DNA of 64,000 nt from Smithellaceae bacterium (lineage in GTDB: Bacteria; Desulfobacterota; Syntrophia; Syntrophales; Smithellaceae): the NCBI GenBank assembly GCA_050008655.1, contig JBEKMF010000001.1, forward strand, positions 1,445 to 65,444. The letters are read 5' to 3'. A program made the position numbers and the translations under genes. Positions 3,144 to 46,677 of the stretch are shown here, piece by piece (position 1 is the first letter of the stretch; every line of letters begins with the position of its first letter). Below the pieces are notes generated by a model. The model had not been told where the DNA came from, did no database searches, and was given only the letters and a program-made list of their open reading frames with translations.

Positions 3144-3970
3144 TCGGGCTTGGGGAAATATTCAAATACGAATTCGTTCAGCGAGCTTTGCTTGCCGGTG
3201 TGCTCATTGCCGCCGTTTCTTCCGTGTTGGGAATATTTCTCGTCTTGCGCCGGCTGTCCTTGATCGGCGACGGACTCGCGCACATTACCTTTGGCAGTGT
3301 AGCGGTAGTATTATTGATTGGATTCAGCCCTCTTTATGTTACTGTGGCCGCTCTGCCTCTGGTTATGCTTTCATCTCTGGCCATACTTCAACTGACTCGC
3401 TATAAGCGCATTCACGGTGATGCGGCCATCGGTATCATCTCTTCCGTGGGAATCGCCGTGGGCATAATCCTGGCCAGTCTCTCAGGGGGCTATAATGTCG
3501 ATTTATTAAGCTACCTCTTCGGCAACATTCTCACGGTAACGCAAACGGAACTCTTGCTGTCTTTTATTGTTTTTATAGTTGTAGTTGGCACTGTTATTTT
3601 TTTCTATAATGATCTGTTTGCAGTTACTTTTGACGAAGAACTGGCCAAAAGCATGGGTATTAAGACAAAAAGAATCAATATCATTCTTTTATTATTGACT
3701 GCCGTGGCCGCTGTTTTAGCGATGAAAGTTACCGGTATAATGCTGGTTTCGGCATTGCTGATTATTCCCCCGCTTACGGCGTTGCAGCTTTCTTTCAGCT
3801 TTAAAACGACTATTATTATCTCGGCCGCTATTTCCATCTTCTCGGTAATTAATGGTATAATATTTTCTTTTTTATTGAACTTGCCGGCAGGAGGAACTAT
3901 AGTAATTTTCAATATAGCTTTCCTTTTGATTATTTTTGGAGCTAAAAAAATCTTGCATTTTCAGAGGTAA
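3140..3970 (+). CDS. znuB: metal ABC transporter permease
   Basis: 276 aa polytopic membrane protein of ABC-3 type (LLSYLFGNIL, DEELAKSMGI). Translationally coupled to znuC by an ATGA overlap. Confidence 0.85.
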   Translation: MIGLGEIFKYEFVQRALLAGVLIAAVSSVLGIFLVLRRLSLIGDGLAHITFGSVAVVLLIGFSPLYVTVAALPLVMLSSLAILQLTRYKRIHGDAAIGIISSVGIAVGIILASLSGGYNVDLLSYLFGNILTVTQTELLLSFIVFIVVVGTVIFFYNDLFAVTFDEELAKSMGIKTKRINIILLLLTAVAAVLAMKVTGIMLVSALLIIPPLTALQLSFSFKTTIIISAAISIFSVINGIIFSFLLNLPAGGTIVIFNIAFLLIIFGAKKILHFQR

Positions 3971-33013: not shown

Positions 33014-33904
33014 TTATGTTCTCCGGTATTGATTCTTATCACGGACAATTTGCCCTTGCGTCTCCAAACGTTCCAGATGCTTATTCACGAGAACGCGCTC
33101 ATTAAATTCAAAGAACTCCAGAGGTTTTCGGGGCTTGCCATAAATCAGCCACGCGGCGGCAATTTCTTCCAGTGTGTGCGGTTTTTTTAAAAATTCCAGA
33201 ATTTTCCTTTCGCGTTCATAGATAATATTTTCGTAGTTATCCCAGAGCTTCCCCGGATTTTCCTCAAACAAGCCGTCTTCATGACAGACAATCCACTTTT
33301 TTGCCGGTATTTTTTTCAATCGCCGGATTGATTTGATGGTTTCATCAATACTGGATTGCACATCGCCATACCAGGGACCGAATGCGGTCAAATCGTAATC
33401 TCCTAAAAAAAGAAGTTCTTCTGCGGGAAAAAAGAAAGACAGGTGGCCGGGGGTATGTCCCGGGGTAGCAATCGCCTGCACCTTAACTTGCCCCAGATCA
33501 ATTTCTTCTTCATTTCCGATAAAACGTGCCTGAGACTGAGGCTGAAAATTGAATACATCTCTCATCACTTGTTTCCAGTAAGTGCGGCTACGTTCATCGG
33601 AAATGCCGTACCAATCCAGAAAAATCTCGATGTCCGTGAGCGGCGGGAAATCCCGCTCGGAAACCCACAAAGGTGAGTCCCCAAAAAGATATACGTAATG
33701 GAAATGATCTTCATGCCAGTGGGAAAGCCAGACCATATCCACGCCTTCCTTATCGCGCAGGCGAGATAGCTTTTCCGAACTGCAGGCCGGATCGATGATA
33801 ACGCGAGCTTCATTACTTTCCACATAAAGTGAATGATTAAACGGATATTTGCCGCGGTTTTCTCCGCCAATAAAACGCAGGCGGCCAAACTGACGATCTT
33901 TCAT
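33014..33904 (-). CDS. MBL-fold metallo-hydrolase
   Basis: HWHEDH metal-binding motif, TPGHTPGH, and a C-terminal winged-helix-like tail. Confidence 0.8.
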   Translation of the reverse strand: MKDRQFGRLRFIGGENRGKYPFNHSLYVESNEARVIIDPACSSEKLSRLRDKEGVDMVWLSHWHEDHFHYVYLFGDSPLWVSERDFPPLTDIEIFLDWYGISDERSRTYWKQVMRDVFNFQPQSQARFIGNEEEIDLGQVKVQAIATPGHTPGHLSFFFPAEELLFLGDYDLTAFGPWYGDVQSSIDETIKSIRRLKKIPAKKWIVCHEDGLFEENPGKLWDNYENIIYERERKILEFLKKPHTLEEIAAAWLIYGKPRKPLEFFEFNERVLVNKHLERLETQGQIVRDKNQYRRT

Positions 33905-34184
33905 AAAAACCTCTTTAAATTATAGCCGCAGAATATATGAAATAATTAGAACAATTTCCATTATTAATTATCGGAAGTCTTACCAAATATTGCGCTTTTG
34001 AGTGAAACACATTCCCTGCTTTCGAACACTAGTATCGGACAAAAATGTAATGAAATCATTAACAATATTAGGATTGACTTTCAGTAATTCAGGAGTAAAA
34101 TTGATGTATAATTAAAGCGAAGTCAGGCTTTTTACTAAACATCATATTTACTGACCACCAAGTTTAAAATAAACGGGGAGGAAT

Positions 34185-34370
34185 ATGATCCATATCAAAG
34201 CCAGAGCGCTTTTACGTTTTACTATCCTTGTGCTTACCGCCCTTGCGGTCACCGCACTGACCGTCACCGGCTGCCAGCCGCAGAAGCAGGCAGGCCCACC
34301 GGAAAAAATCACCATAGCATATACGACCTTGATTAATACCGTTCTCGTCCATATCGCCATTGCTATACTC
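34185..34370 (+). pseudogene. possible remnant: lipoprotein signal plus first strand of an NMT1/SsuA-like substrate-binding protein
   Basis: LTALAVTALTVTGCQPQKQAGPPEKITIAYTT..NTVLVHIAIA looks like the start of a periplasmic binding protein and then degenerates. It lies at the left edge of the GC-rich segment. Confidence 0.3.
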
Positions 34371-34465
34371 ATCAATTCAACCTTTATCGGCAGAACCGCT
34401 ATGATACGCGTAACAGCGCTTCATGAAGGGTTCGAAATCATCGGAGGTGAGAGGGAAGCAATACT

Positions 34466-36838
34466 ATGAACGACGCAAACCGCACCCGCTCTTCCAAGGG
34501 GCTTCTGTTCGGTCTGTTCGCCATCGCCACGGGCGCCGTGGTACTTGTAGGTTGGCTGTTTGACATCCCCAGCCTGAAGAGTGTACTGCCGGGGTTCGTG
34601 ACCATGAAGGCCAACACCGCCGTGGGCTTCGTACTCGCGGGGTTGTCGCTGGCGCTGTTGGGATGCGCGGCCCGCTTTGTGTGGGTGCGGCAGTTGTCGC
34701 GAGTGTGCGCGTGCGCCACGGCGCTGCTGGGCCTCCTCACCCTCAGTCAGTATCTCTTCGGCGTGGACTTCGGCATTGACCAACTGCTCTTCCGAGAAGC
34801 GGCTGGCGCCGTGGGTACGCTGTCCTCAGGCCGCATGGCCCCCGTGACAGCGGTCAATTTCCTCCTGTTGGGTTGCGCGCTCTTCCCCGCAGGCTTCCGC
34901 CGTACCATCCCCGCCGCGCAACGTCTGGTCCTAGTTACGGGACTCATGGGTATGCTGTCTCTGATGGGGTACGCATACGGCGCAACTGAGCTTTTTGGCA
35001 TCGGCACCTACACGCAGATGGCCATCCACACGGCCGTGCTCTTTATCCTCCTGAGCCTGGGGGTGCTGTTACTGCATCCGGCGGACGGCTTTATGCGAAC
35101 AGTCACCAGCGATACCGTTGGCGGCTGGCTACTGCGGCGTTTGGCGCCGTTCGTAGTGGGGATTCCGCTGGTCCTCGGGTGGTTGAGGGTGCAGGGCGAA
35201 CAGAGGGGCATCTTCAATGGTCCATTTGGCGTGGCCTTAATGATGATGGTCATGATGCTCATTCTGACGGGCCTGATCTGGTGGACAGCCCATGCACTGA
35301 ACCGGCTCGGCACCGTCCGCCGGCAAGAAGATGCAGCCCGCGAATACGCCGAGAGCATCATCAACACCGTACGTGAACCCTTAATTGCTCTGGATCAAGA
35401 TTTAAGGGTAGTCACGGTCAGCCGCTCCTTCTATGAAGTCTTTAAGGTTAAACCTGAAGAGACCGTGGGACAGCTTATTTATGACCTGGGCAATAAACAG
35501 TGGGATATTCCCAAGCTGCGCGAACTGCTGGAAACCGTCCTTCCCCAAAAGGCGACTTTTGATAATTATGAGGTGGAACACGATTTTGCGACCATCGGCA
35601 GGCGCATAATGCTTTTGAATGCCCGGCAAATTAAAAGAGTATTGGGAAAAGAACGGATCATCCTCCTGGCCATCGAGGATATAACCGAGCGCAGGGAGAT
35701 AGAAATTGGGCTAGAAAAGACCCGAAAAGAACTGGAGATTATTAAAAAAACCGCAGATGAAGCCAGTGAATTCGCCGAGAGCATCATCAACACCGTGCGT
35801 GAACCTTTAATTTCTTTGGATCAAGACCTCAGGGTGGTCACGGTCAGTCGCTCCTTCTATGAAGTCTTTAAGGTAAAACCTGAAGAGACCGTGGGACAAC
35901 TTATTTATGACCTGGGCAATAAACAGTGGGATATCCCCAAGCTGCGGGAACTGCTGGAAACCATCCTTCCCCAAAAGGCAACCTTTGATAACTATGAAGT
36001 GGAACACGATTTTGCAACCATTGGCAGGCGCATAATGCTTTTGAATGCCCGGCAAATTCAAAGAGTATTGGGAAAAGAACGGATCATCCTTCTGGCCATC
36101 GAGGACATCACCGAGAAAAAGATGCTGGAAAGAGGGGTGGTGAAGGCAAGGGATGTTGCTGAAGCTGCCAACAAGGAACTGGAGACATTCAGCTATTCTG
36201 TTTCCCATGATTTACGGGCGCCGCTGCGGGGCATAGACGGATTCAGCCAGGCGCTCCTGGATGATTATAGCGACAAACTTGATGCCACGGGGAAAAATTA
36301 CCTGGAGCGCATCCGCGCGGGTACACAGCGCATGGGATTGCTGATCGATGATATGCTGAAACTTTCGCGGATAACCCGGGCTGAATTTAACTATGAATCC
36401 ATCGACTTGAGTAAAATGGTCCGGACAATTGCAGATGCATTTCAGAAAAATAATCCTGATAAGACCCGCAAGGTGACCATCCAGAAGGGTCTCATCATCC
36501 AAGGTGACTCTCACTCCATGCAGATTGCTTTGATGAACCTGATAGATAATGCCTGGAAGTTCACCGGCAAACAAAAACATGCCCGGATTGAATTCGGCAC
36601 GACTCTCCAGGAGGGGAAAATGGTCTTTTTTGTTCGAGATAACGGCGTCGGATTTGACATGTCCTATGTGGGCAAACTATTCGGCGCGTTCCAGCGTCTT
36701 CATACGATGGATGAATTTGCGGGAACGGGAATAGGCCTGGCAACTGTACAGCGAATCATCCACCGTCACGGGGGGAAAATCTGGGCGGAGGGCGAAGTTG
36801 GGAAAGGGGCAACCTTCTTCTTCACGCTGCCAGCGTGA
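34466..36838 (+). CDS. sensor histidine kinase: multi-TM N-domain, 2 x PAS, HisKA, HATPase_c
   Basis: About 290 aa of hydrophobic N-domain, two near-identical PAS modules, H-box (SYSVSHDLRAPLR), N box (DNAWKF), G1 (DNGVGF) and G2 (GTGIGLA). Confidence 0.9.
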   Translation: MNDANRTRSSKGLLFGLFAIATGAVVLVGWLFDIPSLKSVLPGFVTMKANTAVGFVLAGLSLALLGCAARFVWVRQLSRVCACATALLGLLTLSQYLFGVDFGIDQLLFREAAGAVGTLSSGRMAPVTAVNFLLLGCALFPAGFRRTIPAAQRLVLVTGLMGMLSLMGYAYGATELFGIGTYTQMAIHTAVLFILLSLGVLLLHPADGFMRTVTSDTVGGWLLRRLAPFVVGIPLVLGWLRVQGEQRGIFNGPFGVALMMMVMMLILTGLIWWTAHALNRLGTVRRQEDAAREYAESIINTVREPLIALDQDLRVVTVSRSFYEVFKVKPEETVGQLIYDLGNKQWDIPKLRELLETVLPQKATFDNYEVEHDFATIGRRIMLLNARQIKRVLGKERIILLAIEDITERREIEIGLEKTRKELEIIKKTADEASEFAESIINTVREPLISLDQDLRVVTVSRSFYEVFKVKPEETVGQLIYDLGNKQWDIPKLRELLETILPQKATFDNYEVEHDFATIGRRIMLLNARQIQRVLGKERIILLAIEDITEKKMLERGVVKARDVAEAANKELETFSYSVSHDLRAPLRGIDGFSQALLDDYSDKLDATGKNYLERIRAGTQRMGLLIDDMLKLSRITRAEFNYESIDLSKMVRTIADAFQKNNPDKTRKVTIQKGLIIQGDSHSMQIALMNLIDNAWKFTGKQKHARIEFGTTLQEGKMVFFVRDNGVGFDMSYVGKLFGAFQRLHTMDEFAGTGIGLATVQRIIHRHGGKIWAEGEVGKGATFFFTLPA
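35348..36115 (+). repeat. in-frame tandem duplication of a PAS module (2 x 342 nt, period 426 nt)
   Basis: 35348-35689 and 35774-36115 differ at about 24 of 342 positions by hand alignment. Most differences are third-codon-position changes, with only 4 amino-acid changes. Confidence 0.9.
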
Positions 36839-36895
36839 AGAAGCGTATCTCGTAATTCGTGAATGGTATCTCGCATATAGAGAAGCGATTGAATT
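36820..36895 (+). promoter_or_regulatory. structured junction element J1 (CTTCACGCT/AGCGTGAAG hairpin spanning the kinase stop codon, plus 2 x CGTGAA..GTATCTCG)
   Basis: A 9-bp perfect hairpin at 36820-36840 includes the kinase TGA. It is followed by AAGCGTATCTCG-taatt-CGTGAATGGTATCTCGC. Confidence 0.7.
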
Positions 36896-37270
36896 ATGGA
36901 AAAGGAAAACGGTAAGATAAAAAATTTCAGAGATCTGGATGTGCGGAAACTAGGTATGGAAATAGTCTTCGATTTTTATAAATATACAAAATCATTCCCC
37001 AAAGAAGAAGTATACGGTTTGGTAAGTCAAATGAGAAGAGCGGCTTTGTCGATTGCTTCCAATATCGCCGAAGGATTCAACCGTTACCATAATAAAGAGT
37101 ATCGTCAATTTTTATATGTTGCTCTCGGATCATGCGCCGAACTGGAAACGCAAATCGAGGTTAGTTTGCTTTTGGGATATATTACGCAATCCGCAAGATA
37201 TAAAATAATTGAGAAACTCGATTATGAATCGCGGATGTTGAGAAACTTGATAAAGCGCCTGAATGCGTAA
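36896..37270 (+). CDS. four-helix-bundle protein (23S rRNA intervening-sequence protein / Avd family)
   Basis: 124 aa with the family pattern F.DL.V...........Y....FPKEE.YGL.SQ.RRAA.SI.SNIAEG..R....E...FL..A.GS..E..T. Confidence 0.85.
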   Translation: MEKENGKIKNFRDLDVRKLGMEIVFDFYKYTKSFPKEEVYGLVSQMRRAALSIASNIAEGFNRYHNKEYRQFLYVALGSCAELETQIEVSLLLGYITQSARYKIIEKLDYESRMLRNLIKRLNA

Positions 37271-37333
37271 AGTGCGCCTCGTAGCTCGCGCTTCACGTTT
37301 CACGCTTCACGAAACACGAAAGGAGTTTTTATC
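37271..37333 (+). promoter_or_regulatory. structured junction element J2 (heptad array CTTCACG-TTTCACG-CTTCACG-AAACACG plus RBS)
   Basis: Only the right-arm polarity of the CGTGAAGCG/CGCTTCACG element is present. The 3' end (ACGAAAGGAGTTTTTATCATG) parallels J3 and J4 (ACAAAAGGAATTTATAATG). Confidence 0.7.
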
Positions 37334-37777
37334 ATGGATAACAGAATTATTTTGCTGGTGGAGGATAATCCCGATGATGTCGAGTTGACTCTAAGGGCAT
37401 TCAAGAAAAACGATATCTCCAATAAGGTGATCGTGGCCAAAGACGGTGTGGAAGCATTAGATTACCTTTTTGGAAAGGGAATGTATGCAGGACGGGAAAT
37501 AAATGATCTGCCCGTAGTTACCCTGCTGGATTTGAAACTCCCCAAAATAAGCGGCCTGGAGGTGCTGAAGGCCATCCGCCAAAATGAGTTCACCAAACTA
37601 CTGCCGGTGGTCATCCTCACGTCTTCAATGCATGAACGGGACGTGGTCAACGGGTATAAACTGGGCGTTAATAGTTATGTCCGCAAACCGGTTGACTTTA
37701 AAGAGTTTGTGGAAGCTATCAAATTTCTAGGCCTGTACTGGCTGGTCTGGAATCAACCTCCTCCTTTGGGAAAGTAA
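37334..37777 (+). CDS. single-domain response regulator (CheY-like receiver)
   Basis: Motifs ILLVEDNPDD, LLDLKLPK (phospho-acceptor Asp), ILTSS and KPV. Confidence 0.9.
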   Translation: MDNRIILLVEDNPDDVELTLRAFKKNDISNKVIVAKDGVEALDYLFGKGMYAGREINDLPVVTLLDLKLPKISGLEVLKAIRQNEFTKLLPVVILTSSMHERDVVNGYKLGVNSYVRKPVDFKEFVEAIKFLGLYWLVWNQPPPLGK

Positions 37778-37852
37778 TTCGTGAAGCGTTGTTCGTGAAG
37801 CGTATCTCGCTCTTCACGCTTCACGAGATGCGAGATACAAAAGGAATTTATA
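37778..37852 (+). promoter_or_regulatory. structured leader element J3
   Basis: 2 x CGTGAAGCG, GTATCTCGC, CTTCACGCTTCACG, CGAGAT-GCGAGATAC, then AAAAGGAATTTATAATG. There are several mutually exclusive 6-9 bp pairings. Confidence 0.75.
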
Positions 37853-40099
37853 ATGGCAAAAAAAGTTTTATCTGCACCAAGCAAGCTGAAACCTAAAATT
37901 AGCAAGCCGCAATTACTCCGGGTATTGGTAGTTGAAGATTCGGAAGACGATGCTCTGCTGATAATTCGTGAACTGAAAAAAGGCGGTTACAATCCGGTGT
38001 ATGAACGGATGGAAACAGCACCAGCGATGAAAAAAGCCCTCAGCCAGAAGCCCTGGGACATCATCCTTTGCGATTATAAACTGCCGAAATTCAATGCGCC
38101 CTCAGCCATTACCGTATTAAAAGAAACAAATATCGACATCCCTCTCATCATTGTATCCGGCACTATCGGTGAAGAGACGGCTGTAGAGTGTATGCGCTCG
38201 GGCGCCAAAGATTATGTCATGAAGAGTAACTTATCGCGTCTGTGCCCCGCCATTAAAAGAGAATTAGAAGAGGCAAAAACAAGAGTCCAACGCAAGCGGG
38301 CAGAAGAGGCGCTGCAGGTGAGCGAGGAGAAATATCGTGCCATTATTGAGAACATGCAGGAGGGTTATTTTGAACTTGACCTTGCCGGTAATTTTACCTT
38401 CGTTAATGACGCTGAGTGTATAAATCTGAGATATCCTCGAGAAGAACTGATCGGAATGAACAACAGGCAGTATCAAGATGAAACAAACGCTCAAAAAATG
38501 TATCAACTCTTCAGAGAGCTTTACAGAACAGGTGAACCGGTTAAGGCATTAGATGTTGAAATTATCAGAAAAAACGGGACGAAAGGTTTTAACGAAATTT
38601 CTGTATCTCTTGTCCGGGATGCAGAAGGTAAACCGATCGGATTTTGGGGTGTTTCTCGGGATGTCACCGAGCGCAAGCAGGCCGAGCAGGCGCTACGAGA
38701 GAGCGAAGCCCAGTATCGGCTGCTGGCCGACAACATGCAAGACCAAGTATGGCTCATGGACCTGAACTTAAAACCGACATACATCAGCCCATCTGTTGAG
38801 AAGATACGGGGATACACATTTGAAGAGATTGCGCAACTTCCGCTGGATAAGCAACTCACGGCAACATCCTTACAGTCGGCGATGGAGTTTTTCTCCATTG
38901 AGATGCCCAAGGCGCTGGCAGATCCAACCTATTTCGCGCTTCCACTGGAACTAGAGTTCTACTGTAAAGACGGCTCAACTCTATGGGTGGAAAGCACGTT
39001 TAGTCAAGTCCGGGACGAAAATGGTAAGCCGTTATCCCTACTGGGCGTCGGTAGAGACATCACCGAGCGCAAGCGAACGGAGGAAGCACTGCATAAAAGC
39101 GAACATCTACATAGAGTTATCACAAATAACATTCGGGACACCGTAGCGCTGCTGGACATTAATTTTCGCGCAACATGGATCAATCCGTCAGTAACCAAAA
39201 CACTAGGATTTACTCTGGACGAACTTGCCCAAGTCCCTCTGGAGCGGCAAGTAACGCCGGATTCTATGCAGCGTATGCAGGATCTCATGCTGGAGCATCT
39301 TACAGCAGAAAATTTGACCGATAAAAACAAGGAACTTAATGTCACCGGCGAGTTTGAATTTTACCGGAAAAACGGCGATATTTTCTGGGATGAGATGAAT
39401 ATATCGCTTCTGCGGGATACAGATGGAAAGCCCACCGGCTTTCTGACGGTAGGCCGCGACATCACCGAACGCAAACGAGCGGAGGAAGAACGTAAGCAGA
39501 GCTTTGAGCGGATGAGAAAAGCTCTGAGAGCCACGGTTCAAGCCATCTCTCTGACTGTGGAAATGAAAGATCCCTATACTTCGGGTCATCAACGGCGAGT
39601 ATCCGATCTGGCCCGGGCGATAGCGACAGAAATGGGCTTATCGGCAGACCGGCGGGACTTTATCCGCACTGCCGCCACTATTCATGACATCGGTAAAATA
39701 GCCATTCCATCGGAGATACTCAGTAAACCGACAAAACTGACTGATCTGGAATTCAGTTTGATTAAAACACACGCCCAGGCAGGCTATGATATCCTGAAAG
39801 ATATCGAATTTCCCTGGCCCGTGGCCGATGTCGTCCTTCAGCATCATGAACGGATGGATGGATCCGGCTATCCTCAGGGCCTCAAGGGAGCTAATATTCT
39901 TCTGGAGGCACGGATTCTGGCCATCGCCGACGTTGTGGAAGCCATCGCTTCCCACCGTCCCTATCGTCCGGCATTTGGAATTGATATTGCCTTGAAGGAG
40001 ATTTCCGATAATAAGGGTATCCTTTATGATGCAGTTGCCGTGGATGCCTGTCTGAAATTATTTCGAGAGAAAGGCTACGGCTTGGTTTTAAAAAAGTAG
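37853..40099 (+). CDS. response regulator with REC, about 4 PAS domains and an HD-GYP (c-di-GMP phosphodiesterase-type) domain
   Basis: REC (VVEDSEDD, LCDYKLPK), repeated PAS-end signatures (GVSRDVTERK, GVGRDITERK), and HD-GYP motifs (HDIGKI, HHERMDGSGYPQGL). Confidence 0.9.
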   Translation: MAKKVLSAPSKLKPKISKPQLLRVLVVEDSEDDALLIIRELKKGGYNPVYERMETAPAMKKALSQKPWDIILCDYKLPKFNAPSAITVLKETNIDIPLIIVSGTIGEETAVECMRSGAKDYVMKSNLSRLCPAIKRELEEAKTRVQRKRAEEALQVSEEKYRAIIENMQEGYFELDLAGNFTFVNDAECINLRYPREELIGMNNRQYQDETNAQKMYQLFRELYRTGEPVKALDVEIIRKNGTKGFNEISVSLVRDAEGKPIGFWGVSRDVTERKQAEQALRESEAQYRLLADNMQDQVWLMDLNLKPTYISPSVEKIRGYTFEEIAQLPLDKQLTATSLQSAMEFFSIEMPKALADPTYFALPLELEFYCKDGSTLWVESTFSQVRDENGKPLSLLGVGRDITERKRTEEALHKSEHLHRVITNNIRDTVALLDINFRATWINPSVTKTLGFTLDELAQVPLERQVTPDSMQRMQDLMLEHLTAENLTDKNKELNVTGEFEFYRKNGDIFWDEMNISLLRDTDGKPTGFLTVGRDITERKRAEEERKQSFERMRKALRATVQAISLTVEMKDPYTSGHQRRVSDLARAIATEMGLSADRRDFIRTAATIHDIGKIAIPSEILSKPTKLTDLEFSLIKTHAQAGYDILKDIEFPWPVADVVLQHHERMDGSGYPQGLKGANILLEARILAIADVVEAIASHRPYRPAFGIDIALKEISDNKGILYDAVAVDACLKLFREKGYGLVLKK

Positions 40100-40184
40100 C
40101 TGACGGTGGCCGGTGAAGCGTCGTTCGTGAAGCGTATCTTGTGCTTCACGCTTTACAAGATGTTAGATACAAAAGGAATTTATA
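40100..40184 (+). promoter_or_regulatory. structured leader element J4 (paralogous to J3)
   Basis: GGTGAAGCG-tcgtt-CGTGAAGCG-TATCTTG-tg-CTTCACG-cttta-CAAGAT-GTTAGATAC-AAAAGGAATTTATAATG. It carries a compensatory change relative to J3 (TCTCG/CGAGA becomes TCTTG/CAAGA). Confidence 0.75.
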
Positions 40185-43100
40185 ATGACAAAAAGAACTG
40201 AATCTACCGCAAGCAAGCCGCAATCACTTCGGGTATTGATGGTTGAAGACTCGGAAGACGATGTGCTGCTGATAATCCGTGAGCTGAAAAAAGGCGGCTA
40301 CAATCCGGTGTATGAATGGGTGGAAACCGCCACCGCCATGAAAAAAGCCCTTAAGGAAAAGCAATGGGACATTATTCTTTGCGATTATAAACTGCCGAAA
40401 TTCAATGCTCCCTCCGCCATTGCCCTGTTAAAGGAAGCAAATATCGACATCCCTCTCATCATTGTATCCGGAACTATCGGTGAAGAGACTGCTGTGGAGT
40501 GCATGCGTCTGGGCGCCCATGATTATATAATGAAGAACAACTTATCCCGTCTCTGCCAAGCTATAACCAGAGAATTAGAAGGGGCAGATTCAAGAAGCAG
40601 ACGGAAACAGGCGGAAAAGTCACTCCGGGAGTCCGAAGAGAGATTCCGCAGTCTGTTCGAAAATTCCTTAATGGGAATATCTGCGGCAACGCCTAACGGA
40701 CATCTGATTCACGCCAATCCAGCGTATGCCCTGATGTACGGCTATGACAACCCGGTACAGATGATCGCTGCGATAACCGATATTGGGCATCAGCTTTATG
40801 CAAACCCGGAGGAACGGAAGGAAGTGCTACGGCTTCTAAGCAAGAAGGGCTTCATGGAACCAAGGGAAGTGGAAGTGATTAAACGCGATGGAACGCGGTT
40901 TTCTGTTCTCGTTTCAGCGCGGGAAATCAGAGATGCCGGCGGCAAACTGCTTTACTACCAAGCCGCGCACCTGGACATTACCGACCGGAAGAAATTAGAA
41001 GAAATTCTGGTAAAAGAGCGGGAGGACCTTAAACTCATTATCGATGCTTCGCCGATCAGAGTTTTCTTCAAAGACAAAGAGGGGAAATTTATACGCGTCA
41101 ATAGGATATATGCCAAGACGCTCAACATGCCGGAAGAAAATATCATAGGAAAAACGGTCTTTGACCTTTATTCCCCGCAGATTGCTCAAAGCATGACTGG
41201 CGATGACCAGGAGGTTTTCCAATCACGACGTCCTAAACTTAACATAATAGAACAATATGAATCTGCCAGCGGCATACGATGGGTGCAGACAGATAAGATT
41301 CCGATCTTTGATAAAGATGGCGTTCCAGTCGGTCTCATAGGTTTTGCACAGGACATCACCGACCGGGAGAAATTGCAGGAAATTCTGGTAAAAGAGCGGG
41401 AGGACCTTAAACTCATTATCGATGCTTCGCCGATCATAGTCTTTTATAAAGATAAGGAAGGCAGATTTATACGCGTCAATAAGATATTTGCCGACGCTCT
41501 TAATATACGTGAAGAATCTTTCGTGGGAAAAACAGTCTTCGACTTTTATTCCCCGCAGATTGCTCAAAACATGACTGACGATGACCAGGAGGTTCTCCAA
41601 TCACGGCGCCCCAAACTTAACATAATAGAACAATATGAATCGGCAAGCGGCCTACGATGGGTGCAGACAGATAAGATCCCGATTTGTGACAAAGATGGTA
41701 TCCCACTCGCTCTTATAGGCTTTGCACAGGACATCACCGACCGTAAGCAGACAGAGAGGGCTTTACGCGAGAGCGAAGAAAACTTCCATATTTCTTTGGA
41801 TAATTCCCCGCTGGGAGTCCGCATTGCGACCGCAGAAGGCGAGACACTTTATGCCAATCAGGCGGTTCTGGATATGTTCGGCTACACAAGTATTGACGAG
41901 CTGAGAAAAACACCCCTGAAAGATCGTTATACACCGGAGAGTTATGCCGATTTCCAGATAAGAAAGAAAAAAAGAGGGCGGGGTGAGTTTGCCCCATCTG
42001 AATATGAAATAAGCATCGTGAGAAAAAACGGTGAGATCCGTCATCTTCGGGTTTTCCGCAAAGAAGTCATTTGGAACGGCGCAAAACAGTTTCAGATCAT
42101 CTACCAGGACATTACCGAACGCAAACAAGCCGAGGAGACGTTGCGTGAGAGCGAGGAGAAATATCGTAATATTCTGGAAAGCATCGAAGACGGTTATTAC
42201 GAAGTTGATCTTGCCGGCAACTTAACTTTTTTCAACGATTCGCTATGCCGTATAAACGGGTATCCGCGGGAAGAATTGATGGGGATGAATAACCGGCAAT
42301 ATACAGATGAATATAACGCGAAACAAATATTTCAAGCTTTTAATGAAGTTTATAGAACGGAAAAGCCCGCTACCGGATATGAATATGAGGTTATCAGGAA
42401 AGACGGCGCCAAAGCCTATATTGCCGCCTCTATATCGTTGCGCAAAGATGCAGCGGGTAAAAAAATCGGTTTCAGAGGGATTATACATGATATCACCGAG
42501 GCCAAGAGAACGGAGGAGGCGCTAAAGAAGAGCGAAGAAAAATACCGGCTAACTTTTGCGAGCACCTCTGACATCATTTTTACGGTTGATCCAGAATTAA
42601 AAGTTTCCAATATTACTCCCAGTGTCGAGAAAGTATTGGGCTATAGCCCTGAGGAATTGATCAACAAACACTTCTCGGATTTGAATCTTATGACGCCGGA
42701 ATCACTGGAAAGAGCAATCTTCAATGTGCAGCAAGTTTTCTCCGGTCTCGATGTCCCAAACGCTATTTACGAATTTATAACAAAGGATGGAGTAAAAGGA
42801 ATAGGCGAAGTTACCGGTTCGCCAATCATTCAAGAAAATAAAATCATTGGTGTCACCTGCGTGGCCAGAGATATTACCGAACGCAAGCTGGCGGAGACGG
42901 CGCTAACCAAGAGTGAAGAAAAATACCGCAGCCTCGTGGAAAACGCGCAGGAAGGTATCTACCAGTCAGCCGTCGGATATCTTACCTTAAACCCAGCACT
43001 CGCGCATATGCTGGGCTATGATTCCCCCGAAGAAGTCATGGCAACCGTCACCGACATTGCCCGGCAGCTTTATGTCAACCCGGATGACCGCAAGAAATTG

Positions 43101-43883
43101 CTGGAAATAGTAAATGAAAAAGGTTCTATAACGAATTTTGAAACAGAGTATTATAAAAAAGACGGCAGCCGTATCTGGGTATCCATCAACATGCACGCTG
43201 TCCGGGATGATCAGGGACACATTCTCTATTACCAGGGAATTAATCAGGACATTACGGAGAAAAAGAAAATAGAAGCGGAACGGCAGGAAAATATCGCACG
43301 CTTAAGAAAATCTCTGGGCGCCACAATTAATGCCATGGCTGTAACTGTCGAAACAAGAGACCCCTACACGGCAGGCCATCAACGAAGAGTGGCTGATCTG
43401 GCGCGCGCTATTGCCACGGAGATGAATCTCACCGGCGATCAAATCGACGGCGTGCGCATGGCCAGCATGATTCATGATATCGGCAAGATATCCATTCCTT
43501 CCGAGATTCTCACCAAACCGACTAAGCTTACCAACCTGGAATTTAATTTAATTAAAACGCACCCGGCATCCGGATATAATATCCTCAAAGACATTGAGTT
43601 CCCCTGGCCCATCGCCCAGATTGTTCTGGAGCATCACGAACGTATAGATGGCTCCGGTTATCCGAACGGCCTTAAGGGAGAGCAAATCCTCCTGGAATCG
43701 AAGATTATAGCCATAGCCGATGTAGTGGAAGCCATTTCTTCGCACCGGCCCTATCGCGCCGCCTTCGGCATTGATGCGGCATTGGATGAGATCACTAAAA
43801 ACAGGGGTATTCTCTTTGATCCTGATCTTGTGGATGCCTGTCTGCGGCTTTTCCGGGAAAAGAATTATAATCTGGCCGCTTGA
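40185..43883 (+). CDS. response regulator with REC, about 8-9 PAS domains and an HD-GYP domain
   Basis: 1232 aa. The REC domain is about 85% identical to that of the upstream paralog. It has many PAS-end signatures (DITDRK, DITERK, DITEAK, DITEKK) and HD-GYP motifs (HDIGKI, HHERIDGSGYPNGL). Confidence 0.9.
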   Translation: MTKRTESTASKPQSLRVLMVEDSEDDVLLIIRELKKGGYNPVYEWVETATAMKKALKEKQWDIILCDYKLPKFNAPSAIALLKEANIDIPLIIVSGTIGEETAVECMRLGAHDYIMKNNLSRLCQAITRELEGADSRSRRKQAEKSLRESEERFRSLFENSLMGISAATPNGHLIHANPAYALMYGYDNPVQMIAAITDIGHQLYANPEERKEVLRLLSKKGFMEPREVEVIKRDGTRFSVLVSAREIRDAGGKLLYYQAAHLDITDRKKLEEILVKEREDLKLIIDASPIRVFFKDKEGKFIRVNRIYAKTLNMPEENIIGKTVFDLYSPQIAQSMTGDDQEVFQSRRPKLNIIEQYESASGIRWVQTDKIPIFDKDGVPVGLIGFAQDITDREKLQEILVKEREDLKLIIDASPIIVFYKDKEGRFIRVNKIFADALNIREESFVGKTVFDFYSPQIAQNMTDDDQEVLQSRRPKLNIIEQYESASGLRWVQTDKIPICDKDGIPLALIGFAQDITDRKQTERALRESEENFHISLDNSPLGVRIATAEGETLYANQAVLDMFGYTSIDELRKTPLKDRYTPESYADFQIRKKKRGRGEFAPSEYEISIVRKNGEIRHLRVFRKEVIWNGAKQFQIIYQDITERKQAEETLRESEEKYRNILESIEDGYYEVDLAGNLTFFNDSLCRINGYPREELMGMNNRQYTDEYNAKQIFQAFNEVYRTEKPATGYEYEVIRKDGAKAYIAASISLRKDAAGKKIGFRGIIHDITEAKRTEEALKKSEEKYRLTFASTSDIIFTVDPELKVSNITPSVEKVLGYSPEELINKHFSDLNLMTPESLERAIFNVQQVFSGLDVPNAIYEFITKDGVKGIGEVTGSPIIQENKIIGVTCVARDITERKLAETALTKSEEKYRSLVENAQEGIYQSAVGYLTLNPALAHMLGYDSPEEVMATVTDIARQLYVNPDDRKKLLEIVNEKGSITNFETEYYKKDGSRIWVSINMHAVRDDQGHILYYQGINQDITEKKKIEAERQENIARLRKSLGATINAMAVTVETRDPYTAGHQRRVADLARAIATEMNLTGDQIDGVRMASMIHDIGKISIPSEILTKPTKLTNLEFNLIKTHPASGYNILKDIEFPWPIAQIVLEHHERIDGSGYPNGLKGEQILLESKIIAIADVVEAISSHRPYRAAFGIDAALDEITKNRGILFDPDLVDACLRLFREKNYNLAA
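40976..41731 (+). repeat. in-frame tandem duplication of a PAS module (2 x 378 nt)
   Basis: The protein repeat runs ITDR(K/E)KL(E/Q)EILVKEREDLKLIIDASPI...GFAQDITDR. A run of about 58 nt (GAAATTCTGGTAAAAGAGCGGGAGGACCTTAAACTCATTATCGATGCTTCGCCGATCA) is identical in both copies; the remainder is about 85% identical. Confidence 0.85.
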
Positions 43884-43894
43884 TGATATTTTAT

Positions 43895-44479
43895 TTATCT
43901 TGCAGTTTTTATAAACAGAGCTGATTTACTTAAGGAAATATGCGGACTATAGCCAAGAGTAAATCCTGTTTTTAAGGCTAAATGAACAGTCTGGGCGAAT
44001 TTTGCTTTTGTAACATGGATTTTCGGTTCCGCCATTAAAAATCTACCGTCATCTTTTAACAAAGAATGTAACTCGGCAAAAAACCGCACTTTGTCGGGAA
44101 CCTCGTGTACCATCCAGAAAGCCAAAATAAAATCCAGCTTCGTTTTAACTCCTAACGAATCTGAAGATGCCAACTGAAGCTCAATGCGCTGTAATACGTT
44201 AGCGCGTTGCGCCCTCTTTCTTATGGCGTTAAGCATTTCTTGTTGAATATCGGCGGCAATCACCCGCCCGCTATCATCAACCAGTTCCGCCAGAGGTATC
44301 GTAAAATAACCGATCCCGGGGCCGACATCCAGAACGGTGTCTCCTTCTTTTACGTAAGGCCGAAGAATTTCATACGGATCTTGCAGTAATTTACGAAATA
44401 CATTGTCAAAGGTAAAACACAGCCAACGCGGACAAACGTGTTTAAATCTAAAAAAGAATAAGTCGGAAATTTTGTTCAT
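43895..44479 (-). CDS. class I SAM-dependent methyltransferase
   Basis: Motif I (VLDVGPGIGYFT), post-I acidic residue (AADI) and 194 aa length. Confidence 0.8.
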   Translation of the reverse strand: MNKISDLFFFRFKHVCPRWLCFTFDNVFRKLLQDPYEILRPYVKEGDTVLDVGPGIGYFTIPLAELVDDSGRVIAADIQQEMLNAIRKRAQRANVLQRIELQLASSDSLGVKTKLDFILAFWMVHEVPDKVRFFAELHSLLKDDGRFLMAEPKIHVTKAKFAQTVHLALKTGFTLGYSPHISLSKSALFIKTAR

Positions 44480-44502
44480 ATTACTTCTTGGGTCGTTTCC
44501 GT

Positions 44503-46677
44503 TTAAAAAATGTTTTTTAAAAACTCTAAAACTTTAGCGTTTACCTGCTCGGCTTCTTTTCCCCGCAATATCCCGTGATGATTGGCCTCGATTCGGATAA
44601 GTTCCTTTTTGGGAGCACCAAGTTTTTCCAATATTTCCCGCCCGCTTACCGGATTCACTACCGGATCTTCCGACCCTTGTATGACCAGTGTCGGGTCTTT
44701 GATGTATTTAAGTCGCTCTTCAACGGTATTCATAAGTTTTTCGAGTTCATTCACCCCGCTGACAGGATTGCGCAGGTAATTTATATCTGGATTTTCCGGG
44801 TCGTTGGCAATGAATTCCATTTTCCCTTTGTTTGTGTTCATTTTCGAAAGGAATTTGTTCCAGGCGACAACCACGGATGAAAGCCTGGAGGAAATATTTT
44901 GAAGCTTTAAAGGAGCATTAATCGATATTACTTCCACAAATCTGCCGGGCTTATTCGAAGCCTGCAATAAGGCTATTCCCGCGCCTGTGGAAAAGCCGCC
45001 AATGGCAAAAGATTTCAGGGAATTTTTCATGATGATGTATGCCCTGCTTACAGAATCATACCATTTTTGCCACTTGCAGCCTGCCAAATCTTCCGGGGAC
45101 GTACCATGCCCCCGCAGACGCGCGCCATATACGTTGTAGCCCTTCTTATAGAGGTAATCCGCCAGCGGCCTAATCTCTTCAGGGGCCGCCAAGTATCCGT
45201 GAACTAGGATCACCCCTTTATTACAGAAGAAATGCTTCAGAAAAAAAGGAGCTCCGATATTTTTGGGCTTGCTCTCGCCTTTTATATAATACTGTTGATA
45301 GTCTTGGTCAAAAAGACGCTTATCCAGTTCGATAAAGTGATTCCTTATCTTCATGCGGATAAAACCATCAGGCAGGAGCATTAGACGATCCAAGGACTTG
45401 GTGAGCTCCTGAAGAGGCTCTATCTCATTTTTGAGAACCTCAATGATATTATCCTTCCGGATAGTTTGGAAATCATATTTTTTGCTGAAAAGTTTTCGAT
45501 TTTTGATAATCATCCCGTCTTTTATAGTAATAAAATTATCGGCTGTCGCGGCCTTTATAAAACTTTCGTATTCTTCATGATAATCATCCGTGAGAAGATA
45601 GAACTGCTTTTTATTCAGAGACGTATGATAGTTCGTCAAACCGCTGGCGCGTAAATGTTCGATCGCCAGAAAAACGCGGTTTTTAAAATCGTTTTCACTA
45701 ATTTTGTTTCTACTGTATTTTGTCAAGATATAAGAAAAAAGATGATCATGATTAACGGTCGTCATGGAGTATATGGCATCCATATAATCATACATAATTT
45801 CGATATAGAGCTTTTTAAATGGAGAAACATACTTCAATTCTCCGGGATGCAAATAAAGATTATTATCCGCCAGCATCTTTTTCACTCCCACGCTCGCCGT
45901 GATATATGTTTTCATTGGTATCGGCTGGCCGAAATTAATATCGATATCCACACCGTCCATAATCATGGAGCCTTCGACTTGCATCTCTTCTTCAAACCGC
46001 GCTGAAACCTTATCGACAAATATATTAACAAGCTTGTTGATAGCGTTATTCCTCGCCCGGATCGGGTAATAGGTAATATTTACCGGCACAATATATGTTT
46101 CTTTCTGGAGAATTCGGTCTAAATCCGCGGTATCAAAACCGAAGTGTTTCGCGATTTGAGTAATAGACGAATCATCGCCTCTGTCGCGCAGGAGGCGTAA
46201 TTCTTCGCGAATGAACTGGGAGCGCAGAGCGATCCGCCCCGCGCCGGTATGGGGAGGCCGCCTGATTCCGGTATTGTAGACCATATACTTGCCCTTCTCG
46301 ATAATCTTCTTGTCCTTTATCATCTGGCCTTCCGGGTAAATAATGACCGGGTTAGAATCGGTAAGAAGCGCGTTGATAAGCAGTGTATCCCTGTTGGGGT
46401 CCTCAGTGGAAATTCCACCTAATCTGTCCATAAGCTCGCCCATTTTCCCGCCAAAAAAAGAGCTGTCCGCCAGAGAAATGGGATATTTTTTTATGCTCTT
46501 TTTGATTATGTAGGGCATCAAAATTGTTTCCATCCGCGTAAAGTGATTGATGACATAGAGAACAGGCTGGTCAGGCACTCCTTCAGTTCCATGCAGGCGT
46601 ATATCCGTGCCCGATGCTTTAAATACGACATCGAGTGTGACTATAATGGTTTTAATCAGAGTATTTGATATATTCAT
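44503..46677 (-). CDS. fusion protein: N-terminal PlsC-like acyltransferase plus C-terminal alpha/beta hydrolase (lysophospholipase/esterase-like)
   Basis: N-terminal NHFTRME (an HX4D-type variant) and YPEGQ-type motifs. C-terminal VHGYLAAPEE, nucleophile elbow GFSTGAG, GSEDPVV and a C-terminal His. About 220 aa in the middle are unassigned. Confidence 0.65.
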   Translation of the reverse strand: MNISNTLIKTIIVTLDVVFKASGTDIRLHGTEGVPDQPVLYVINHFTRMETILMPYIIKKSIKKYPISLADSSFFGGKMGELMDRLGGISTEDPNRDTLLINALLTDSNPVIIYPEGQMIKDKKIIEKGKYMVYNTGIRRPPHTGAGRIALRSQFIREELRLLRDRGDDSSITQIAKHFGFDTADLDRILQKETYIVPVNITYYPIRARNNAINKLVNIFVDKVSARFEEEMQVEGSMIMDGVDIDINFGQPIPMKTYITASVGVKKMLADNNLYLHPGELKYVSPFKKLYIEIMYDYMDAIYSMTTVNHDHLFSYILTKYSRNKISENDFKNRVFLAIEHLRASGLTNYHTSLNKKQFYLLTDDYHEEYESFIKAATADNFITIKDGMIIKNRKLFSKKYDFQTIRKDNIIEVLKNEIEPLQELTKSLDRLMLLPDGFIRMKIRNHFIELDKRLFDQDYQQYYIKGESKPKNIGAPFFLKHFFCNKGVILVHGYLAAPEEIRPLADYLYKKGYNVYGARLRGHGTSPEDLAGCKWQKWYDSVSRAYIIMKNSLKSFAIGGFSTGAGIALLQASNKPGRFVEVISINAPLKLQNISSRLSSVVVAWNKFLSKMNTNKGKMEFIANDPENPDINYLRNPVSGVNELEKLMNTVEERLKYIKDPTLVIQGSEDPVVNPVSGREILEKLGAPKKELIRIEANHHGILRGKEAEQVNAKVLEFLKNIF

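Follow-up and report, generated by a model that had tools for sequence, protein, structure and literature searches.

We found that the two intergenic spacers ahead of the HD-GYP regulator genes of a Smithellaceae bacterium most probably hold gene-less (solo) copies of a widespread inverted heptamer element, one that would be largely neutral and would have at most RNase III or mRNA-stability effects. The spacers lie in a 64,000-nt stretch of contig JBEKMF010000001.1 (GenBank assembly GCA_050008655.1, positions 1,445 to 65,444 of the forward strand), referred to below as the window, within a single plus-strand operon (34185-43883) which opens with a 94-aa open reading frame (ORF) and continues with genes for a PAS histidine kinase, a small IVP protein, a stand-alone receiver (REC) and two REC-PAS-HD-GYP regulators. 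IVP stands here for PF05635, the '23S rRNA-intervening sequence protein', also known as S23p, TIGR02436 or 'four helix bundle protein'. The junctions are designated J1 (kinase/IVP), J2 (IVP/REC), J3 (REC/regulator 1) and J4 (regulator 1/regulator 2). J1-IVP-J2, located 0.5 kb upstream of the solo copies, is the loaded form of the same element. The first-pass annotation, made from the sequence of the window alone, had read J3 and J4 as a conserved structured leader, with a translational or termination switch among its possible roles; the pairings that it described are present, yet a conserved, operon-specific switch did not withstand comparison with related loci.

The element consists of two tandem-heptamer arrays that together form an imperfect palindrome: its 5' arm is built of CGTNNNN units and its 3' arm of NNNNACG units, taken from a limited set of unit types (CGTGAAG, CGTATCT, CGTCGTT and CGTGAAA). 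When the element carries a gene, the loop closed by the arms contains the gene for the IVP/S23p four-helix-bundle protein, as in the intervening sequences (IVSs) of 23S rRNA. The elements occupy intercistronic gaps; they start just past the stop codon, or overlap it, and stop a few bases short of the next ribosome-binding site (RBS). J3 and J4 belong to this family (Table 1): both possess the CGTNNNN 5' arm and the NNNNACG 3' arm, share the unit vocabulary and are positioned between genes. J3 comprises 4 + 2 exact units, plus 2 degenerate ones, and J4 comprises 3 + 1, plus degenerate ones; all four units of the J3 left arm are among the six commonest of the 929 units counted in the 118 matches listed from the pattern scan described below (ranks 1, 6, 1 and 2). 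J3 fits its intergenic gap closely, starting 3 nt past the TAA codon and stopping 14 nt short of the ATG. In the same genome, the IVP gene is bracketed by the same arrays (J1-IVP-J2, 36817-37318), with the J1 region giving a fold z-score of -3.2 and the J2 array ending 6 nt ahead of the AGGAG of the REC gene. The 7-nt period noted for J2 in the first-pass annotation was recovered both by Tandem Repeats Finder (TRF) and by detection of in-phase runs. CGTGAAG is found 17 times in the window vs 6.1 +/- 2.5 times in shuffles, the excess being located in the four operon junctions, and the junction heptamers are confined to J1-J4 within the 64 kb. A high-copy repetitive extragenic palindromic (REP) sequence of this genome was also considered and rejected within the window, as zero copies lie outside the operon in 64 kb.

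The kinship of J3 and J4 has a simple source. The first-pass annotation treated them as related leaders, and their similarity indeed amounts to 83%, but it runs on into the coding sequence (89%) and therefore reflects tandem gene duplication, not conservation of a leader. J4 thus came into being with the duplication of the regulator gene and later decayed at CpGs; an alignment of J3 with J4 over 72 positions shows 8 differences, of which 4 fall at CpG.

Table 1. Genes and repeat arms of the operon, in window coordinates
Feature	Coordinates	Strand	Basis or remark
PAS histidine kinase, host operon gene	34466..36838	+	domain search
Perfect 13-bp palindrome CTTCTTCACGCTG/CAGCGTGAAGAAG across the kinase stop codon	36817..36843	+	inverted-repeat search
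J1 left-arm heptamers CGTATCT CGTAATT CGTGAAT, then GGTATCTCGC, upstream of the IVP gene	36844..36874	+	CGT phase
IVP/S23p gene, 124 aa, cargo of the gene-carrying element form	36896..37270	+	PF05635 E = 4e-34; TIGR02436; PDB 2GSC (5 chains) E = 4.5e-20
J2 right arm CGTAGCTCGCG, then CTTCACG TTTCACG CTTCACG AAACACG, downstream of the IVP gene	37280..37318	+	ACG phase; TRF
Stand-alone receiver (REC), host operon gene	37334..37777	+	domain search
J3 left arm, four in-phase heptamers CGTGAAG CGTTGTT CGTGAAG CGTATCT	37780..37807	+	read directly; CGT-phase run of 4 units
J3 centre CGCT between the arms	37808..37811	+	element called 37780-37825 with a 4-nt gap
J3 right arm CTTCACG CTTCACG AGATGCG AGATACA, ACG phase, last two units degenerate	37812..37839	+	11-nt perfect inverted repeats
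Shine-Dalgarno AAGGA (37841-37845) and ATG (37853) of the REC-PAS-HD-GYP gene	37841..37855	+	unpaired in the minimum-free-energy fold
REC-PAS-HD-GYP regulator 1	37853..40099	+	domain search
J4 left arm (C)GGTGAAG CGTCGTT CGTGAAG CGTATCT	40112..40139	+	CGT run of 3 units at 40119
J4 right arm, decayed, CTTCACG CTTTACA AGATGTT AGATACA	40144..40171	+	CpG to TpG/CpA relative to J3
REC-PAS-HD-GYP regulator 2	40185..43883	+	domain search; tandem duplicate of regulator 1, upstream J element included

Further copies of the element exist in large numbers. A scan of one genome per species with the pattern TTCGTGAAGCGTN{3,20}GCTTCACG matched more than 118 genome loci, and the counts that follow are for the 118 matches listed. 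True in-phase heptamer runs are present in 98 of these, and the 20 without runs agree with the estimated number of chance matches. The matches with arrays originate from Nitrospirota (43), Planctomycetota (22), Omnitrophota (13), Desulfobacterota (5) and others, and many of the array-bearing loci lie on contigs of 0.1-2.9 Mb. Their flanks are imperfect palindromes assembled from a small unit vocabulary, in which CGTGAAG (318 of the 929 units) is followed by CGTATCT (118), CGTCGTT (82) and CGTGAAA (58).

We delimited 148 solo palindromes, with a median length of 60 nt and a median centre of 8 nt, of which 90 lie between co-directional genes, 25 between convergent and 14 between divergent ones. 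Their arms mostly consist of 3-5 units, while six or more are rare; arms of five units number 31-35 and those of six units 4. Exact in-phase runs at the pattern-scan and IVP loci (L005-L122 and L123-L202) likewise drop sharply after five units, with runs of 3, 4, 5, 6, 7 and 8 units counted 95, 74, 57, 8, 1 and 1 times, respectively. As measured with crude first-ATG ORF calls, which left many distances unusable, and with 32 elements seemingly 'inside' ORFs excluded, most co-directional solos start 0-30 nt past the stop codon, the TGA often lying within CGTGAAG; where a solo does not overlap the called downstream ORF, it stops 3-30 nt ahead of the start codon. Some frames of the heptamer arrays are free of stop codons, which makes such calls noisy. 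In Nitrospira, many solos (L014, L022, L040, L045, L109, L111, L113 and others) possess a conserved small central palindrome, GTTCCGRAYTCGGAC, which the Smithellaceae copies do not have; it may be a sub-family marker or a remnant.

The relation of the element to stop codons can also be followed in the window, where the kinase TGA (36836-36838) sits within a CGTGAAG unit and the left arm of the 13-bp palindrome corresponds to codons (TTC ACG CTG) of the conserved C-terminal ...TFFFTLPA motif of the kinase. At other loci, several IVP genes and genes upstream of them likewise terminate on the TGA of CGTGAAG. Stop codons may be provided by the element itself, or insertion may occur beside a pre-existing TTCACG.

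The element family is tightly associated with IVP genes. All three IVP genes found at the pattern-scan loci, as well as the one in the window, are bracketed by a CGT arm upstream and an ACG arm downstream. Two of the three (Smithella L067 and Deltaproteobacteria L083) belong to the same kinase-IVP-REC operon as in the window; the third comes from Nitrospira, encodes a protein that shares 70% identity with the Smithellaceae one and is flanked by the same heptamers, a combination that speaks for horizontal spread. We then have an independent sample of 80 metagenome IVP loci (L123-L202), chosen by peptide pattern alone. Arrays, defined as exact runs of 3 or more units, are located within 150 nt of the IVP gene at 67 of the 80, with the CGT phase upstream at 52 and the ACG phase downstream at 51, compared to 10 and 5 in the opposite orientation; the leading units are again CGTGAAG (149) and CGTATCT (137). 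Within the same loci, arrays are found at 64% of IVP-adjacent junctions vs 20% of the others (odds ratio 7, p = 7e-14), and since about 20% of the non-IVP junctions carry arrays, gene-less copies are very abundant in carrier genomes. The flanks of IVP genes are mutually complementary (median duplex energy -44.3 kcal/mol, median z = -4.2, with z < -2 in 75%), so that a long stem encloses the ORF in its loop. The IVP gene is co-oriented with both of its neighbours at 44 loci and opposed to them at 5, and the cassettes occupy many unrelated operons. The protein family itself is large: more than 7,990 database clusters match the window IVP at E <= 1e-5, and PADLOC returned no defence-system match for it.

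In turn, distant IVPs are associated with the same layout built from other units. In a set of 16 plasmid homologues, 27-50% identical to the window IVP, 14 possess a clear inverted array of a different 7- or 8-nt unit on at least one flank, and mostly on both. These units include GTAGGGA/TCCCTAC and AACAGGG in Nostoc, AAAGGGA/TCCCTTT in Geminocystis, GTGACAG/CTGTCAC in Anabaena, GGTTYAA/AACCTTG in Riemerella, and AAGGCAG-type units in Stanieria and Nostoc 7120; octamers are found in Gemmatirosa, Picosynechococcus and one Nostoc, and Pseudanabaena has direct arrays, not inverted ones. Mostly, the commonest upstream unit is the reverse complement of the commonest downstream unit, and related IVPs from different genera carry related units. 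One member of the set, Azospirillum L208, encodes its IVP within large-subunit rRNA (Rfam, 907 bits) and represents a genuine 23S IVS with heptamer arms. The octamer flanks at L207, L216 and L217 (e.g., GAGGGCAG/CTCCTGCC in Gemmatirosa) recall the four-unit octanucleotide sites of Geobacter metallireducens (PMC2700814). On cyanobacterial plasmids, IVP cassettes with heptamer or octamer arms are also found inside CRISPR-Cas and other operons, namely in cas6/IVP/cas4 (L204 and L210), in cas10/cmr2/IVP/cmr3 (L216) and between ribonucleotide-reductase subunit genes (L203), with the cas6-cas4 position being common to two genera.

We therefore consider it probable that J3 and J4 are solo copies of this element, and their behaviour may be pictured as follows. 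In the polycistronic mRNA they would form imperfect hairpins of about 18 bp and about -21 kcal/mol that leave the RBS free, and as inserted, largely selfish or neutral elements they would be tolerated where the RBS stays free. Any effect would consist in double-strand-specific (RNase III-type) processing or in stabilisation of mRNA segments, by analogy with rRNA IVS stems and REP sequences, and would involve no ligand sensing. Two of the roles proposed in the first-pass annotation are the most plausible functional readings, namely cutting by an RNase and a protein-binding array.

Several observations weigh against this picture or against parts of it. The proposed processing, stability effect and neutrality are drawn from analogy. 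The longest uninterrupted helix in J3 measures 12 bp, less than is usual at a canonical RNase III site, and we identified no transposase or recombinase that would account for the spread of the element. The J1 x J2 complementarity in the window is weak (z = -1.7, vs the family median of -4.2 for terminal repeats enclosing an S23p ORF) and is decayed relative to the family. Among the solos, the sense strand is the more stable one in 46 cases vs 40 (p = 0.14), and G-U pairs number 137 on the sense and 124 on the antisense strand; as neither stability nor G-U pairing shows a sense-strand excess, there is no positive sign of RNA-level selection. Finally, heptamer elements recur at most junctions of orthologous operons, perhaps because a function in this operon preserves them.

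Such recurrence is among the points that favour the reading of J3 and J4 as a dedicated cis-regulatory RNA, i.e., an RNA that would switch translation or termination, possibly in response to c-di-GMP, and would set the expression of the HD-GYP regulators through its alternative helices. Both elements are placed directly upstream of the RBS, related genomes carry elements at the same junctions, the 3' part CTTCACGAGATGCGAGATAC together with the RBS is conserved in several orthologous leaders, and alternative pairings do exist. In J3, CGTGAAGCG (37794-37802) pairs with CGCTTCACG (37817-37825), in a match which the repeat search lengthens to 11 perfect bp, GTATCTCGC (37802-37810) pairs with GCGAGATAC (37830-37838), and ATCTCG (37804-37809) pairs with CGAGAT (37824-37829), with ATCTTG (40136-40141) and CAAGAT (40156-40161) as the J4 counterpart of the last helix. 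The helices are interleaved and mutually exclusive, just as the first-pass annotation had it, but this is a product of how the element is made: both arms of J3 and J4 use 3-4 heptamers, many registers pair, and several alternative and interleaved pairings per element arise because the units all share CGT/ACG and unit types are few. The double compensatory substitution to which the annotation pointed is likewise real (37808 C>T with 37825 G>A, one pair among the 8 J3/J4 differences), but it carries little meaning, since in simulated substitution sets of equal size at least one compensated pair, counted in any helix of 6 bp or more, arises in 26% (uniform positions) to 45% (CpG-matched) of cases. 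Fold energies are unremarkable against dinucleotide shuffles (J3 z = -1.85, J4 z = -0.70).

The comparison of leaders speaks against the switch more strongly. Across nine leaders from related genomes, each preceding an orthologue or paralogue of the regulator genes, a sample in which modular repeats align poorly, RNAalifold gave -0.24 kcal/mol, hence essentially no consensus structure; 66.0% of the cells of helices A and B are paired vs 66.6% in shuffles, with zero double changes, and 164 of 500 shuffles do as well as helix C, so that the covariation expected of a conserved leader is absent from these nine. Conservation is limited to the final ~40 nt (right-arm end, RBS and ATG), the left arm varies in unit number and order between orthologues, and in a related contig (L128) the element is absent at both response-regulator junctions. 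A leader that is conserved and specific to response-regulator genes is not supported by these data, and the same sequence family also precedes unrelated genes in at least four phyla. An Rfam scan of the operon to E = 10 returned only noise, with c-di-GMP-I and c-di-GMP-II riboswitches unmatched, in agreement with the annotation's own remark that no known cis-regulatory RNA was recognised. A scan for terminators and promoters found nothing in J3 or J4; the J3 hairpin is followed by AAAAGGAAUUUAUA and does not have the GC-rich hairpin plus U tract of an intrinsic terminator. In the minimum-free-energy fold of J3 the final 14 nt are unpaired and the RBS is free, and the gap to the RBS is narrower than the claimed ~10 nt, as the end of the repeat, at 37838-37839, is about 2 nt from AAGGA. 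Taken together, we regard a dedicated switch as very improbable. A junction orthologous to J4 (L067, reverse complement 3780-3900) has left units CGTATCT/CGTCGTT and right units AACGACG/AACAACG whose arms pair poorly; the conserved feature may be the periodic CGT/ACG array rather than a hairpin.

A different possibility, which overlaps with the solo-element explanation and which we hold as tentative and rather unlikely, is that the arrays are binding sites of the IVP/S23p homopentamer, with one heptamer per subunit, in RNA, single-stranded DNA or duplex DNA. Binding would govern the processing or translation of flanking cistrons, or else the copying and spread of the element, and the IVP of this operon would act on J3 and J4 as targets in trans. 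The association of IVP genes with arrays is tight and oriented, and the unit sequence tracks the IVP clade, not the host: the same units accompany 62-86% identical IVPs across phyla, related units accompany 72-80% identical cyanobacterial IVPs of different genera, and different units accompany 30-50% identical IVPs. However, such a correlation is also explained by co-inheritance on one mobile unit. The rarity of arms beyond five exact units (3:95, 4:74, 5:57, 6:8) is suggestive, and a 7-nt period with an invariant triplet resembles the sites of ring proteins such as HutP. The closest solved relative of the window IVP, the Xanthomonas S23p entry 2GSC, has five chains, and PMC4990558 cites the Xanthomonas protein as a toroidal homopentamer. 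On the other hand, cyanobacterial arrays extend to 7-15 units, octamer arrays occur, and the Coxiella S23p is reportedly not produced in vivo (PMC4990558).

Far less probable still is the explanation that the arrays are unconnected to IVP and represent either simple-sequence repeats made by slippage or DNA sites of transcription factors or internal promoters. The 7-nt copy number does differ between orthologues, heptamer simple-sequence repeats are over-represented in bacteria (PMC4692102), and paired heptanucleotide sites of Geobacter are annotated as regulator sites (PMC2700814). Yet slippage fails to account for identical vocabularies in four phyla, for the inverted two-arm layout and for the sevenfold enrichment at IVP junctions, while a DNA-site function is at odds with the absence of a promoter-like site from J3 and J4 and with a domain search in which the operon regulators have no DNA-binding domain.

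Among known systems, the closest to the solo and loaded elements are the 23S rRNA IVSs with an S23p ORF (Leptospira, Coxiella, Brucella, Xanthomonas and Azospirillum L208). They share the PF05635 cargo, an ORF looped out (in the family as a whole) by terminal inverted repeats, the existence of short gene-less forms and tandem-heptamer arms (GACAGAT in Coxiella, PMC4990558; Azospirillum). The Coxiella IVS has its S23p ORF in a loop closed by a 28-bp terminal stem with tandem heptamers of variable copy number, and RNase III cleaves it at the first repeat (PMC4990558). Unlike these, the present element resides in intercistronic spacers of protein-coding operons and not in helix 25/45, uses other unit sequences and, in J3 and J4, has no ORF; no rRNA match was found in 33800-44600, where the flanking genes encode a kinase and response regulators. 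RNase III excision, established for the rRNA IVSs, would apply to J3 and J4 by analogy.

The second relevant group comprises dispersed heptamer repeats: TAACTGA of Beggiatoaceae, cyanobacteria and Bacteroidetes (PMC4679880), GGGAATC of Xanthomonas (PMC4692102), the paired five-unit heptanucleotide sites of Geobacter metallireducens (PMC2700814) and the cyanobacterial short tandemly repeated repetitive (STRR) sequences. These are also tandem 7-nt intergenic units, usually in 2-6 copies and often ending just before a start codon, with a patchy cross-phylum occurrence, and they are described as unexplained. J3 and J4 have the features of this class and a different unit sequence; the described repeats are mostly direct arrays of other sequences, whereas here they form inverted pairs with an invariant CGT/ACG. 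S23p or IVP is not mentioned in PMC4679880, PMC4692102 or PMC2700814. A link between heptamer repeats and S23p was not found in the literature beyond the description of the Coxiella IVS, in a search outside which most subscription journals lay, and the literature match on the sequence string was dominated by a U6 quantitative PCR primer (CGCTTCACGAATTTGCGT). Hence, the link of IVP genes with heptamer arrays appears to be undescribed, and an earlier description is possible.

REP/BIME and REPIN-RAYT elements resemble ours as short, multi-copy, imperfect palindromes located extragenically within operons, with a non-autonomous majority, a protein-coding partner and possible effects on mRNA stability. 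In contrast, the partner in our case is a four-helix-bundle pentamer without known catalytic activity, and tandem heptamers form the arms in place of a unique palindrome; no RAYT (IS200/IS605-like Y1 transposase) is present among the genes called around the operon, for which no genome-wide search was made. The accessory protein Avd of diversity-generating retroelements belongs to the same superfamily as IVP (PF05635/PF22296) and forms a pentameric barrel that binds nucleic acid. A retroelement of this kind was dropped as an explanation because no reverse transcriptase adjoins the IVP gene; the template and variable repeats are not found beside it either, and heptamer arrays are not among the described features of these retroelements. 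Integron attC sites were dropped as well, with RYYYAAC/GTTRRRY cores absent by inspection and an integrase absent nearby.

As for the remainder of the operon, the gene for the second, 1232-aa regulator contains a 378-nt tandem duplication at 40973-41747 (2.1 copies, 86% matches by TRF), probably a recent duplication of a PAS domain. An independent assembly of the locus (JGI contig Ga0427951_002015) stops just inside this gene, and most contigs with close IVP relatives are shorter than 3 kb; both are consistent with repeats and duplicates breaking assemblies.

The finding is thus an element of the IVS type that combines S23p cargo with heptamer arms, resides in mRNA operons and has abundant derivatives without a gene. 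It removes a false riboswitch candidate from the window and explains the resemblance of all four operon junctions. For annotation, it accounts for hairpins at about one in five intergenic junctions near IVP genes, which can be mistaken for regulatory RNAs and break metagenome assemblies. Inverted heptamer arrays bracket the IVP gene in mRNA operons and in rRNA, in many phyla, and the unit follows the protein clade; in this way two old puzzles, the function of the S23p/IVP family and the origin of dispersed heptamer repeats, become physically linked. This opens the testable hypothesis of a ring protein reading a 7-nt repeat within a mobile or selfish cassette. In its boldest form, which we consider conceivable though doubtful, the IVP pentamer and its heptamer (sometimes octamer) arrays would be one two-part element, with putative recognition of about one unit per subunit, that spreads horizontally into intercistronic spacers and exposed 23S rRNA helices and leaves gene-less arrays behind. 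If true, rRNA intervening sequences and the dispersed heptamer repeats (cyanobacterial STRR and those of Beggiatoaceae, Geobacter, Nitrospira, Planctomycetes and others) would share one origin, and a very large family of 'hypothetical' proteins would receive its first function.

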